64,000 nt of DNA, taken from Octopus sinensis (lineage: Eukaryota). The stretch covers positions 112,530,001 to 112,594,000 of the forward strand of contig NC_042997.1 of assembly GCF_006345805.1 (NCBI RefSeq), in the 5' to 3' direction. Below the pieces are notes generated by a model that saw only the letters and a list, made by a program, of their open reading frames with translations, was not told where the DNA came from and made no database searches. The position numbers and the translations under genes are program-made. Positions within the stretch are counted from its first letter, which is position 1, and each line of letters starts with the position of its first letter. Below, piece by piece: positions 3,980 through 57,090 of this stretch.

Positions 3980-5020
3980 GAGAAGATACAAATTGCTCTT
4001 GGATCACAGATCAATAAATTAGCACAGCTAAAATCCGTATCATGGGAGCAGATCACAGATAAATACCAACAGATGGAGAGATGGGTTGAACATTATTCAG
4101 GTCTCTGCATAAATCTTTAGGTAAATATATTCAATAAGAATATTATATACTGAATTTATATTGAGTGCTCCATTGTATAAAAATATTAATACTATTATAG
4201 TATTCATATATTTAATACGAGCGATATATACATATATTTTTAATAATATATTATTATTATTAATATAAGGAAATTAATATCCAAACTCATCATAAAGATA
4301 TAGCCGTGTGAGAGAACTTATTGTATTAAAAATATATATAAATAAATAAATATAAAAGTATAAATATAATGTATAAAATAAATTTGATAGTTTAAAAGTT
4401 TTGAATTAATTATTTAAGCATCTTACGATCGTTTCATGTCTCTGCTTGCAAGACTGATCAGTAGATAAAAGCCTACAAGATATAATGGCCCAACTTCCAG
4501 AAATGGCAGAACTTGACAAAGACTCCACCCAGGAGGAACTGGCAAAAGCCATTGATGAGCTCACAAATGGAAAGTTTCCTGGCAATGACCATCTACCAGC
4601 AGAAATACTGAAAGAGAACAAGGACACCATCCTACTTCATATATACAAGTTCTTGATTTTCTGTTCGAAGCATGGAGAGGTCTCATAAGACATGAGAAAT
4701 GCCAGCATAGTGACCTTGTATAAGAACAAGGGAGAGAAGGAAAACCGCAACAACTACAGAGGCATGTTACTGCTATGTGTCACAGGAAAAGCATTTGTCC
4801 AAATGCAAAGACAGTCCAGTTTGATGGTTTCACATCAGACAGCTTTGAGATCAGAAGTGGAGTTAAACGGAATTGTTCTGGCAATCTTCTTTGCCAGGCT
4901 GTTTCAGTTTGCCTTCAAGGAATCTCTTGTAGATGTCTGCCTTCACAAGAGAACTGATGCATACCTTTTCAATCTTGCACACCTCAGAACAGAAGCCAAG
5001 ACCAAGTCAACTTTGTACTA
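3980..5020 (+). mobile_element. Decayed RTE-clade LINE ORF fragment, interrupted by an insertion at 4109-4437
   Basis: QITDKYQQMERWVEHYSGL, EELAKAIDELTNGKFPGNDHLPAEILK, MRNASIVTLYKNKGEKENRNNYRG; contains stops and deletions. Confidence 0.85.
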
Positions 5021-5476
5021 AAGCGCTAGGCTGACGAAAGCCTTGTGAATGGATTTGGTAGATGGAAACTGAAAGAAGCCCGTGTGTGTGCATATGTGAG
5101 GGGGGGACCCTTGTCTTGACATCATGTGATGGTTGCAAACAAGCAACAGCATCACACAAGTGAAGCTGCCCATTTCCAGCGTTGTATGAAAAAAAATGTC
5201 TGCTCACGGAGAAATATAGCCTTGCGTGGAAACAAGCAAGGGTTGGCAACAGGAAAGGCATCCAGTCATAGAAAACCTGCCTCAACCAATTCCATGTGGC
5301 CCATGCAAGTATGGGAAAGTAAACACTGATGATGATAATGGTGGTGATTAAGGTAAGTGTTGTTTCTTAAAATTCACATGTAACACCATGTAGCATTGAG
5401 AAAAATAAAAAAAAAAAAGAGAAAACAGTTGTGATGTTCAGAAATACAAACTCATGTTGAAATTCTAAGAACATAC

Positions 5477-5596
5477 TTCTGCATTTCAAGTAATTCTTCT
5501 TTGGTCAGTTCTTTATATGGATCTTCTGGAATCTCTTCTTTCCCTTTAGAAGACGATGCGTCTACACCGGGTCTTCTAACAGACCTCTTTCGGCGT
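5477..5596 (-). CDS. HYDIN: HYDIN exon, 120 bp, phase 2-2 (last seen in window)
   Basis: RRKRSVRRPGVDASSSKGKEEIPEDPYKELTKEELLEMQ; ttttctag acceptor, GTATG donor. Confidence 0.75.
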
Positions 5597-7350
5597 CTAG
5601 AAAATAAAATAAATTTTCAAAAATGCTGAACAACAATATAAACATATTTTGTAAGCAAAAGACAGACTGAGAGGTCCAGTTTTTAAAATTTCAACCCCAA
5701 TTAAGCTAAATTTAGAGAAAACTCACATTGTGGTGTATGAGTCAAATGCTTTTCTTAGTGTGGGTTACAGCACTCGCACACACACACACACAAAAAGGGA
5801 GCGATCTGATTCACTCATGCTATCACTCTCATTTCTACAACTTTCTCTTTGCAAGTGTGCAACGATTAAACTGAAACTATTTCTATAAAACGGATCACTC
5901 ATGCTATCAACATAATTTCTCTCACTTTCTCTTTGCAAGTGTACCTTAAACCACTACTAAAAAAATAAAAAACACAGCAAACAGAAACAAATAAATACAT
6001 AACGATTTACTCCTCACACAATTTCTTCAATTAGAGTTTACCTAAGATTTTTCAAAGTACTCCATTCGGTCATGCCATAAAAAATTTCTTTCAATTTCAC
6101 CCCCAATTAAGATAAAATTCGAGAAAACTCAATATTTTAACATTTCACTCCGAAAGCATTGATGTACATGTGTGCGTGCGTGAGTGTGTGTGTGTGTGTG
6201 TTTGATGGGTTGTGCGACACAGAAAGTGTGGTGTGTAAGTGAAGTGCTTTTGTTAGTGTGTGTAAAGAGACAGAGAGAGTGAAAGACAGAAATAACTGAA
6301 CTTTTTTTATTCACTTTTTGTAGTGAGTGACTGAGAGAGAAAAGAGAGAGAGAGGTTATGTATGTATATATGTATGTATGGCTTCAGTGACACACACACA
6401 CAAAAACACATACCTACGTACACCTAAAGCACGCACACACACAAGCGGAGCGCGAACTTCAAAATTTTGGTAGTATTAATTTGCGAGCGTACTTCTAAGC
6501 GCGCGTAATTGAAAGTTTTCACTATGATATCATCACGTGCGAAAAAATTCGAAGGGTTTTGAACAATTGAGATACAGATGTCACGCCTGTATTGAAACCA
6601 TTGCTAAGCTGCCGTAATTGCTTAATTAAGACTTTGTTTAAATTGAAAGGGGCAAATATGTGACGAGGTTGAAAAAAAATACCCCAGAAAAAAAAAATGT
6701 ACTGCTGGTATTTATATAATTCACTACTATTTTGCTACAATGTCATGAAAAAGAAAAAATTTAGGTATGTACAACATATATTATACATTTTTTCTATTCA
6801 TTCAATTCATTCAACGAAAATAAAAAAATCGAATTCGCCACCCCCTTTTCCCCGTTCGCGTTTGTGTAAAAAAAATTATTATATAAGTTTTAAAAATTAT
6901 TTACTTTGTTCAAAAAATATTAATATTAATTAATTTTCAAGAATTATTTAATTTACATAATTAATTCATTAATTTTATTCTGTAAAATAGTAATTAATTC
7001 ATTTATCTGTAAATCCGCGAGGTTGTTACTCAGGCACCTAGAAATAGCAGCCAGATTTTTATATTCTAAATAATTTGCAATTTCAAAAAATATATTAATT
7101 TTGCGTTATTTAATTTGATAAATTCTACGGAATAATTTTGCGCGTTATATACGTTCGCATTTCTGTAAAAAAAAGTAATTATTTAAGGGCGATCGAGTAT
7201 CGAGTACCTACGTCTGGCTTGTGCGCAACCGGGACCACTCTGCGATACAAGTACCCATATATACATCCATACATACATGTGTGTGTGTGTCTATGTATGT
7301 GTATTAATGTGTGTGTGTGTCTATGTATGTGTATTAATGTGTGTGTGTTA

Positions 7351-55213: not shown

Positions 55214-55252
55214 ACCTTAATTTTCAAACCTTATTGTGTTCTCATCAGAGGT
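55214..55252 (-). ncRNA. Ultra-minimal type I hammerhead with intact core
   Basis: acct-CTGATGA-gaac acaataag gttt-GAAA-at-TA-aggt; stem III is only the palindrome AATT. Confidence 0.68.
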
Positions 55253-56866
55253 GTCTACATCATTTTGACAGTCTCCAGAGAAACAAGCAGCCAAACTGTT
55301 TATATACTCGACAAATGCAGCAGTTATTCTATGAAGAAGTCCCTAATTTGCATACCGAAAGTGTTTAACACTATAAATACCAGCGGCCTGTCATTGGGGA
55401 TCTTAGTCCACACAGTATCAAGGTATGATCAAACTCGGTGACTGGCATCCGTTGCTAGTGGAGCGTTAAGAGTACCATACGAGTGAGATCATTGCCAGAG
55501 CAACAAGCTGGCCTTCGTGCCGATGGCACGTTAAACACACCATTCAAGTGTGATTGTTACCACGTCACCTTACTAGCACTTGTGCTGGTAGCATGTGAAA
55601 CATTCGAGCGAGGTCGTCGCCAGTGCCGCTGGACTAGCTCCCGTGCAGGTGGCACATAAAAAGCACCATTTGGGTGTGGTCGTTGCCAGTACCACCCAAC
55701 TGGCCTTTGTGCCGGTGGCACGTAAAAGCACCCACTACAATCTCGGAGTGGTTGGCATTAGGAAGGGCATCTAGCTGTAGAAACTCTGCCAGATCAAGAT
55801 TGGAGTCTGGTTCGCCAGACCTCAGTCAAATCGTCCAACCCATGCTAACATGGAAAGTGGACATTAAATGATGATGATGTAACATATGGTATAATTATAA
55901 CCAGGGCAAATTTTAGCCATTTCTCCATACCTTGGTAAGGCATGGAAGGAGAGGAAGGTGAGAGAAAGTTAGAGACAGAGAGACACATATATATTTATGG
56001 GTGCACTGAGAATGTCAGAGAGAGACAGACAGACAGACAGAGACACAAGGAGAGAGAGAGAACAATATTGTATGTCATACAAACAGTCCTGGAATAGAGA
56101 GGGCATGTCATTGAGGGAGGGAAAAAAGGAGAAGAATCAGAATGTATATTTAGAAGAGGAGGAGAAAAACTTGTTGAGAGGGAAATACACTGAGAGAGAA
56201 AGAGAGAAAGAAAGATAGATAGATAGTGTTATTCACCATAAGTTTTCATTAAAAACATGGTAGTTTTAAGTGCAAGTCTGTCAACACAACACAGAGCAGA
56301 CTTTAAAAAATAGCTATGTATGTATGTATATATATATATATATATAATACATATAATACAAATGACAACAAACCTGGCTGATTGATTGATTGAATAAATG
56401 TATGATTAAACAATCAATGAGTTGATTGGTTAAATGATTAACATCTAATTAAGAAGCCCAAATAAATAACCATTATTATCATTTCCATTATTATTATTAT
56501 TATTACTAGTCAGTATCTATTGCTATGCTGCCGGGTAATCAGCCAGTCAAGATGAAATGGATCCTTCAGCGGAAGCCAACTGCAAGAATAGGTTCAACAA
56601 CAAACCTGTTTTTTTTTTAAACATATTTTAATTCTATCTTACACACACACACTATTTCTCTCAACAAGAACAACAACAACATGACATCATAGAGAAATTT
56701 CTTTTTTCAAAGTCTGTGTTGCATTGTCTATATGTTGAAAGATGTACAGAAACTCACACACACACACAGAAACATGCACACACACAAACAACCAAATAAA
56801 TAACTATATGTATTATATATATGTATTATATATATGTATTATATATATATATATATATATATATAT

Positions 56867-57090
56867 ATCTGTAAATGTAATATGTGACAATTATTCGGTA
56901 GCCATGATATAACTCTGAGCTTCGGATGCCGAGGTGGAAATCCACACCGCCATCACTTCAGTTATCCGGCCATCGGACCGAGTTTCGGAGGCTACCAAAT
57001 AATTGTCACATATTACATTTACAGATACATTCCTCTATTTACATAATATTGAGGTCTCTTTCTTTCTTTTGTTGTCTTACCGTTTTTATC
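56867..57090 (-). mobile_element. PLE-terminal-like fragment with 37-bp inverted arms enclosing decayed HHR motifs
   Basis: Arms 56867-56903 and 56990-57026; gataa-CTGAAGT..GAAG-ctcagagtt-atatc; flanked by (TA)n. Confidence 0.5.

Follow-up and report, generated by a model that had tools for sequence, protein, structure and literature searches.

The window analysed here is a stretch of 64,000 nucleotides (nt) from the genome of Octopus sinensis (assembly GCF_006345805.1, contig NC_042997.1, positions 112,530,001 to 112,594,000) that lies inside the gene for HYDIN and carries 13 hammerhead ribozyme motifs or half-motifs. We believe that these are mostly broken minimal type I hammerheads of ten families, left in HYDIN introns by Penelope-like retroelements (PLEs) and by passengers that have no open reading frame (ORF), and we place the probability of this reading at about 85%. 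The type of element is already known, and the window is ordinary retroelement debris that offers a dense local sample of it.

The locus

Two exons in the window match the Hydin_ADK family (E 4e-17 and 1e-15), and one window exon matches a solved HYDIN chain; a protein homologue search with a HYDIN exon returned nothing. For a third, probable exon at 8200..8406, Pfam gave no match. Exons for HYDIN Ig-like domains are found at C1:112,428,326, 112,685,401 and 112,694,749, all on the minus strand, and therefore the window and the 100 kb on each side of it lie inside the gene. The features of the window are as follows.

53963..54181, minus strand: HYDIN exon, start of the adenylate-kinase-like domain (Hydin_ADK), with AG and GT ends
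47218..47358, minus strand: HYDIN exon, adenylate-kinase-like domain (Hydin_ADK), with AG and GT ends
8200..8406, minus strand: probable additional HYDIN exon, an open frame bounded by AG and GT
4109..4437, minus strand: insertion 1, a 5'-truncated copy starting just before GAAA, with half hammerhead 4419-4440
18417..19980, minus strand: insertion 2, short-ended arm of a Penelope-like element arranged head to head
20007..21647, plus strand: insertion 2, long-ended arm, ending in (TA)n, with a GIY-YIG remnant at 20672-21115
22045..22363, plus strand: insertion 3, a partial 492-nt ORF-less unit with intact hammerhead 22133-22219, whose family covaries in stem III
26189..27257, plus strand: AT-rich Penelope-like ORF remnant, with a linker and a GIY-YIG-like end
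29481..29888, minus strand: insertion 4, long-ended arm, with a complete 365-nt ORF-less unit
29880..30104, plus strand: insertion 4, short-ended inverted arm, with intact U3-A8 hammerhead 29890-29932 that equals the family majority sequence
32358..32805, plus strand: insertion 5, 3' end of an AT-rich element
38485..38854, plus strand: insertion 6, a 353-nt ORF-less unit; hammerhead 38642-38686 has three G-to-A changes, including G12
38903..39161, minus strand: insertion 7, of the 343-nt unit family, truncated inside the 5' core to leave half hammerhead 39055-39097
40208..40363, minus strand: insertion 8, a short copy whose U3-A8 hammerhead 40321-40361 is intact and which borders on the tail of a repeat that resembles a short interspersed nuclear element (SINE)
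55140..55429, minus strand: insertion 9, a 304-nt ORF-less unit with hammerhead 55214-55252
56845..57108, minus strand: insertion 10, a head-to-head pair; hammerhead 56906-56966 has A9U, A15.1G and a helix I change

Motif calls and chance expectation

A reading made earlier from the letters alone (the sequence-only reading) had called about 13 hammerhead motifs or half-motifs, eight of them on the HYDIN pre-mRNA strand, and had listed palindromes for their third stems. All 13 are present at its coordinates, as are the eight palindromes that it lists, and 8 of the 13 sites do lie on the minus strand, which the Hydin_ADK and HYDIN Ig-like exons identify as that of the gene. However, the count must be read differently, because sites 18464 and 21317 are arms of one element and sites 29723, 29813 and 29890 belong to another. 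Thus, the 13 motifs represent ten insertions, and only 4 of the 13 copies pass our descriptor. Likewise, the AATT at 55214 exists, but it is the product of a 4-nt deletion from an 8-nt palindrome of its family.

The four copies that pass (22133, 29890, 40321 and 55214) are intact, seven others are decayed or 5'-truncated members of families whose majority sequence passes, and two (29813 and 32352) are atypical. Among the defective copies, 29723 has one mismatch in stem II, 18464, 21317, 38642 and 56906 are damaged in the core or at a junction, and 4419 and 39055 are truncated halves. More specifically, hammerhead 18464-18547 in the short arm of insertion 2 has lost one C where stem I joins the core, and hammerhead 21317-21401 in the long arm carries G5A in addition to the U4C core of its family. 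The long arm of insertion 4 holds both the mismatched U3-A8 hammerhead (29723-29763) and the atypical motif (29813-29862). Hammerhead 32352-32452 of insertion 5 is interrupted at C3 by another insertion and has a mutated stem III, and hammerhead 55214-55252 keeps an intact core with an extended helix I and a stem III that is 4 nt shorter. Insertion 7 has an adjoining inverted arm (39092-39161), and its family core is U4C. Insertion 1 sits in the ORF remnant of a long interspersed nuclear element (LINE) between 8-bp target-site duplications (4101-4108 / 4438-4445); a full hammerhead at 4419 was considered and rejected, given that the core-like letters upstream are LINE flank outside the duplication.

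These motifs are real and exceed chance expectation. A strict type I descriptor gave three matches in the window, whereas 150 dinucleotide block shuffles averaged 0.29 overall and 0.0 for the palindromic canonical class. The final descriptor, which was relaxed once the families had been inspected and was applied in identical form to its shuffle control, finds the four intact sites versus a mean of 0.06 and a maximum of 1 in 100 shuffles. The half-motif of GAAA plus a palindrome barely exceeds chance when taken alone (23 in the window, shuffle mean 14). No hammerhead is among the 131 Rfam matches to the window at E<=10, a miss that counts against membership of that library and leaves the hammerhead anatomy untouched. 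For the four intact copies, the predicted gain from dimer formation is 2.7-16.7 kcal/mol.

Ten repeat families and their hammerhead anatomy

Ten genome DNA searches covering the 13 sites returned from 513 to 2287 first-look candidates each, which are not copy numbers. For each family, the best 25-30 loci of 40 scored matches were taken with no random draw, and alignments of the fetched copies yielded 11 motif types in ten families. Every site falls in a multi-copy repeat family, consistent with the claim of several unrelated families, and the shuffles are nearly empty; both findings are the opposite of what the sequence-only reading had named as evidence against itself.

Nine of the 11 family majority motifs pass the final descriptor, five with a C3-G8 core, two with U3-A8 and two with U4C, a hammerhead core variant. 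Counting the window row, the rows that pass in these nine families number 7/23, 15/20, 21/30, 20/28, 11/32, 5/35, 4/32, 8/32 and 15/27. The core C3-U4-G5-A6-N7-G8-A9 (or its U3-A8 or U4C form), with G12-A13-A14-A15.1 and U16.1-H17, is present in all 11 majority motifs, helices I and II stand in register with the core in nine, and stem III is palindromic or near-palindromic in every one. The sequences of helix I and stem III are unrelated between families, and their complementarity is kept in each. Complete motifs are recovered in the family majorities even in cases where the window holds just a half. In the 4419 family, for example, the majority motif is of the C3-G8 type and intact, and 7 of 23 rows pass. 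Within the 22133 family, paired cells make up 96.3% of 928, and there are 24 two-sided changes versus 10.3 in shuffles (0/500), with two stem III pairs switching on both sides. The view of these motifs as PLE-type minimal type I hammerheads, drawn from many families, is upheld.

Two motif types depart from this pattern. The 32352 family majority has a complete core and an 8-nt palindrome with a helix I of just 2 bp, and resembles in this respect a Drosophila virilis variant (PMC4209133). In the 29813 motif, which is fixed in the 365-nt unit, helix I is bulged at its base and the core is followed by two additional nucleotides. This second hammerhead-like motif (29813-29862, minus strand) starts at the long 3' end of the unit. 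A heterodimer of 29813 and 29723 within the unit was rejected by inspection, as their helix I strands are not cross-complementary.

Link to Penelope-like elements

One family directly follows a GIY-YIG ORF. Its sites 18464 and 21317 are located 3' of GIY-YIG remnants in head-to-head arms (18417-21647) that are 99-100% identical and end at +52 and +202, and the short arm holds ORF remnants at 19093-20004 with GIY-YIG at 18749-19141. The peptide preceding the nuclease resembles HTH_animal clusters at 0.97, and a protein homologue search with the PLE peptide was empty. At 25 of 30 loci of the 21317 family, the sequence for the PLE peptide lies upstream in the same orientation.

A second family (32352) probably also stands behind a Penelope-like ORF, through upstream DNA shared within the window. 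The remnant at 26189-27257, for which Pfam gave no match, is 37% identical to the 20672 peptide over 118 residues (E 4e-22), and the DNA upstream of the 32352 family matches window positions 28180-29489 and 31775-32106. Therefore, the remnant and site 32352 are probably one interrupted element, of which 26189..27257 would be the coding part. The AT-rich element is split by a 228-bp inverted repeat pair (30133-30360 / 32128-32351, 95% identity), which is probably another inserted element.

ORF-less units, inverted arms and tails

In five families, the next hammerhead follows at a fixed 125-245 nt after the 3' end, closing units of 492, 365, 353, 343 and 304 nt. A PLE peptide is found upstream on the same strand in 1 of 140 loci of these families, and this one is the window's own neighbouring element. 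These five closed ORF-less units of 304-492 nt are retrozyme-like. Circular folds of single natural units give z scores of -1.6, -8.8, -4.1, -2.3 and -3.1 against 40 shuffles. The 365-nt closure is present in contigs from three of four sequencing runs; given that one of these is a DNA-like run, the closing joint is no proof of circular RNA. Three runs presumed to be RNA have coverage of the 365-nt unit and none of the HYDIN exon, which counts neither for nor against expression.

Four of the five units also carry marks of PLE insertion. Adjacent inverted arms occur at 11/30, 20/30, 19/25, 16/25 and 0/30 loci of the 492-, 365-, 353-, 343- and 304-nt units, the count of 16/25 being biased because the query contained the arm; an inverted arm was present in queries 39055 and 56906. 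When 66 arm pairs from four short families are sorted with thresholds for long and short ends chosen by eye, 59 combine a long with a short 3' end, five have two short ends and two have two long ends. This pairing of a long with a short end matches the tail pattern that PMC8557442 draws for PLEs and that PMC11167929 attributes to two starts of reverse transcription. In addition, (TA)n follows the long end at 27/30, 15/25, 14/30, 12/30 and 11/30 loci of five families. It is likely that the families spread as Penelope-type retroelements or as small protein-less passengers.

An alternative view is that all ten families are 3' ends, or pseudo-long terminal repeats (pLTRs), of autonomous PLEs, and that the closed units are by-products of tandem insertion. 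This does hold for the 21317 family and probably for the 32352 family, and it could accommodate families 4419, 40321 and 56906, which have neither an ORF nor a clear closure within 1.5 kb flanks, given that PLE copies are mostly 5'-truncated (PMC8557442). However, the fixed spacing of the next hammerhead at many loci of five families leaves no space for an ORF, and the 365-nt closure is identical in contigs of three runs. We therefore consider the pLTR view unlikely as an account of all ten families.

Same-strand intact tandems, the criterion of Li et al. for an 'active' retrozyme, are absent from the window. In the flanks there are one six-hit array and two tandem pairs. The array (L337:5673-9384, G000:C1:112,495,673-112,499,384) comprises about 7.5 copies of a 490-bp unit that are 97% identical and antisense to HYDIN; six copies have intact hammerheads, making it a retrozyme array in the sense of Li et al. 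A further observation is that three short units (29780-29980, 38600-38730 and 38930-38950) have in common a pyrimidine-rich stretch with GTTCGAA at its end, located 35-105 nt beyond the cut site, which closes a long rod around the hammerhead in two of them. A shared protein-binding site or a B-box-like motif is possible.

Possible selection on the ribozyme

We compared variants across ten families in the interval that starts at C3 and extends to 25 nt beyond the cut. The window row was dropped, together with 46 CpG columns and 7 of the 277 remaining rows, which were truncated or divergent. Inherited variants, meaning those common to at least three copies, are found in 2 of the 102 columns of the core and in 73 of the 626 columns outside it (p=0.001), and rare variants occupy 52 of 2759 core cells versus 394 of 16183 others (p=0.09). 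This pattern fits selection during family replication followed by neutral decay after insertion, and suggests that the ribozyme mattered while the families spread.

The inverted arms were also examined for traces of cleavage, leaving out the two families whose queries held an inverted arm. Thirty of 65 arms run across the cut site, which speaks against an RNA that simply starts at the cut. A cleavage-site footprint was rejected, as the 5' ends of only 3 of the 65 arms lie within 5 nt of the predicted cut (p=0.21), and an apparent pile-up of 5' ends in the 56906 family was due to the query and to junction microhomology. At 37940-38274 there is another head-to-head pair of the 353-nt family in which one arm begins exactly at the predicted cut site (a single case).

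Proposed mechanism and points that weigh against it

In double hammerheads, the helix I strand of one copy pairs with that of the other. This cross-pairing is drawn for the dimer in PMC4209133. We propose that ORF-less passengers of 300-500 nt would use the enzymes of Penelope-like elements. In an active tandem transcript, the palindromic stem III and reciprocal pairing of helix I strands would join two copies, which would then cut. Reverse transcription would have two possible starts, 50-400 nt beyond the cut site, and would proceed back across it on an uncut or re-joined template, and priming from both broken DNA ends would yield the inverted arms. Each family would require its own helix I and palindrome as partner, such that solitary copies in the window would leave HYDIN pre-mRNA uncut and decay neutrally.

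Several of our own results weigh against this account. The 304-nt family lacks the inverted arm altogether, two units have no (TA)n ends (0/25 each), and none of the short units was matched to an autonomous partner. The GIY-YIG matches (E 4e-4 and 5e-4) fall below the Pfam curated cut-off, and the reverse transcriptase core is absent from the window, where the copies are truncated. The 5' ends of inverted arms show no pile-up at the cut. The 29813 and 32352 families fail the descriptor in every row (0/23 and 0/28), and the other majorities pass partly by construction, the descriptor having been relaxed after the families were inspected. The covarying rows are related and thus reflect few independent events. 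Finally, the non-random choice of loci, the thresholds set by eye and the two queries that contained an inverted arm all bear on the counts given above.

A more ambitious version of our reading is one that we offer tentatively and consider to have somewhat less than an even chance. In this version, the genome would hold tens of thousands of hammerheads and dozens of rod-folding ORF-less retrozyme families inserted by Penelope enzymes. The core would be under purifying selection despite read-through of the cut site, implying an obligatory circular RNA step of cutting and re-joining in vivo, and the family palindromes would serve as self-recognition codes that silence solitary intronic copies.

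Possible consequences for HYDIN

The eight motifs on the pre-mRNA strand might be taken to mean that HYDIN transcripts are affected. Although their number stands, the implied meaning is weak: two of the eight pass the descriptor, and these two intact sense copies have different palindromes, each with no partner of its own family on that strand within the window. Because a dimer needs cross-paired helix I strands and no partner is at hand, the solitary window copies are likely inert.

A competing explanation is that some intronic copies are active and cut HYDIN pre-mRNA, and that intact sense copies have been selected against or co-opted. Over 264 kb of HYDIN, intact matches do occur more often in antisense orientation (17 versus 7), the largest tandem array has this orientation too, a sense tandem pair outside the window has a predicted fold with cross-paired stem III, and conserved intronic hammerheads occur in amniotes (PMC6765202). 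However, the depletion on the sense strand for which the sequence-only reading had proposed a test does not emerge as a significant skew when independent loci are counted over the same 264 kb (10 antisense, 5 sense and 1 on both strands; p=0.30). Moreover, minimal hammerheads in vitro had no activity as monomers and low activity as dimers (PMC4209133), and the ribozyme of an anole PLE required its protein (PMC11167929). Given these points and the solitary state of both passing sense copies, we regard this explanation as very improbable.

The sense tandem pair belongs to a head-to-head element (L348:173-1657), each arm of which carries two intact hammerheads in tandem, separated by 550 nt. Its minus-strand pair, at G000:C1:112,664,173 and 112,664,724, lies on the HYDIN pre-mRNA strand, and cross-pairing of stem III is predicted when this pair is folded alone; the inverted neighbours could mask it. 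Within the window, long inverted arms are found at 18417-21448 (about 1.4 kb, 99-100%) and 29550-30104 (225 bp, 95%). Such arms would give double-stranded RNA in the pre-mRNA, hiding motifs and providing substrates for editing.

The least credible explanation, that the motifs are chance matches in AT-rich and repeat-rich DNA, could draw on the Rfam result, on the near-chance frequency of half-motifs, and on site 29813, which may be a hairpin near an element end that merely resembles a hammerhead (the 353-nt unit has at a similar position a hairpin with no 5' core), but it is already refuted for 11 of the 13 sites by the shuffle controls, by family majorities that complete the motifs seen as halves in the window and by a core that inherited variants spare.

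Density in the genome

The sequence-only reading had taken roughly one motif per 5 kb as a sign of a large and diverse population. The population is indeed large and diverse, with 36 pooled intact matches falling into 21 sequence clusters, but one per 5 kb does not hold as a genome rate. A random sample of sixty 10-kb stretches at round coordinates on 23 contigs (600 kb) holds only 5 intact motifs (shuffle mean 0.53). Extrapolated from these five matches to the 2.72-Gb assembly, this corresponds to about 20,000 intact motifs, with a range of 5,000-50,000. By comparison, the HYDIN flanks hold 20 intact matches at about 11 loci in 200 kb versus 0 in 10 shuffles. Twenty stretches of C1 100-125 Mb hold seven, and ten stretches near the gene hold two.

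An enrichment specific to HYDIN was considered, as 9 of 20 flank bins contain motifs versus 11 of 90 elsewhere (p=0.002). It was rejected because the difference from nearby bins is not significant (6 of 30, p=0.11) and because a SINE-like repeat is equally enriched, its density per 100 kb being 26 in the flanks and 33 immediately beyond them, compared with 7.8 in the random stretches (about 3-fold). The region is repeat-rich in general, and the motif density is local.

Relation to known systems

Minimal hammerheads in pLTRs of metazoan PLEs were described by Cervera and De la Pena in 2014 (PMC4209133). The motifs presented here share with them the type I topology, the palindromic stem III, a helix I of 4-6 bp, the U3-A8 variant, the many heterogeneous families per genome with mostly single motifs, and opposite-strand pairs 100-700 bp apart. 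They differ in their longer stem III palindromes (6-12 nt in most families), in the two U4C families, and in an estimate of about 20,000 intact motifs, resting on five matches, versus 2,000-9,000 per genome. Mollusc motifs from Lottia and Crassostrea are included in the supplement to that paper, and the one supplement file searched has no octopus or cephalopod entry. A literature search on hammerheads in octopus or cephalopods found no survey of the group, with subscription papers and repeat libraries lying outside the search.

Non-LTR retrozymes of metazoans (Cervera and De la Pena 2020, PMC7229834; Li, Clavereau and Pollet 2026, preprint 10.64898/2026.07.22.740005) share with our units the ORF-less length of a few hundred nucleotides, low GC content, one type I hammerhead per unit, head-to-tail closure, occurrence as monomers and arrays, and co-occurrence with PLEs. 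In contrast, the copies studied here are mostly partial or about one unit long, stand in head-to-head pairs, and are known from closure at the DNA level rather than from circular RNA. The argument of Li et al. proceeds from distribution and pLTR phylogeny, mainly in vertebrates. The two-end tail mark of PLEs on such units is a line of evidence that we have not met in the portions of either source that were consulted.

The Poseidon element PAc of the green anole (Frangieh et al. 2024, PMC11167929) likewise has two 3' ends downstream of its hammerhead, templates that cross the cut site and AT-rich targets. Its tails of 30-40 bp compare with 36-150 nt here, and its ribozyme mutants were unimpaired in insertion in vitro, whereas inherited variants avoid the core in our families. 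The ultraconserved intronic hammerheads of amniotes are also of type I and also reside in introns of large genes, but they are few in copy number and conserved, unlike the large and mostly decayed repeat families of the window (PMC6765202, PMC7229834).

The tails found on ORF-less units and the sparing of the core add modestly to this knowledge. Tails and inverted arms of PLE type on such units amount to direct insertion-site evidence for the proposal that PLEs mobilise animal retrozymes. Craig et al. raised the question of whether hammerheads merely parasitise PLEs, and the sparing of the core by inherited variants bears on the open question of whether the ribozyme matters for these elements. 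A genome rich in young families of this kind makes the role of the ribozyme testable by counting alone.

Other repeats in the window

A Mariner-type transposase with one stop codon occupies 17174-18304 on the plus strand (HTH_48, E 6e-23; Transposase_1, E 4e-23). Remnants of LINE reverse transcriptases are found at 4458-5021, 41212-41505, 43631-44429 and 48120-49785, three of which have weak RVT_1 matches. The SINE-like repeat, with (ATG)n ends, occurs at 11948-12243, 35665-35960, 40369-40664, 51823-52118 and 54292-54587, as well as at other positions.

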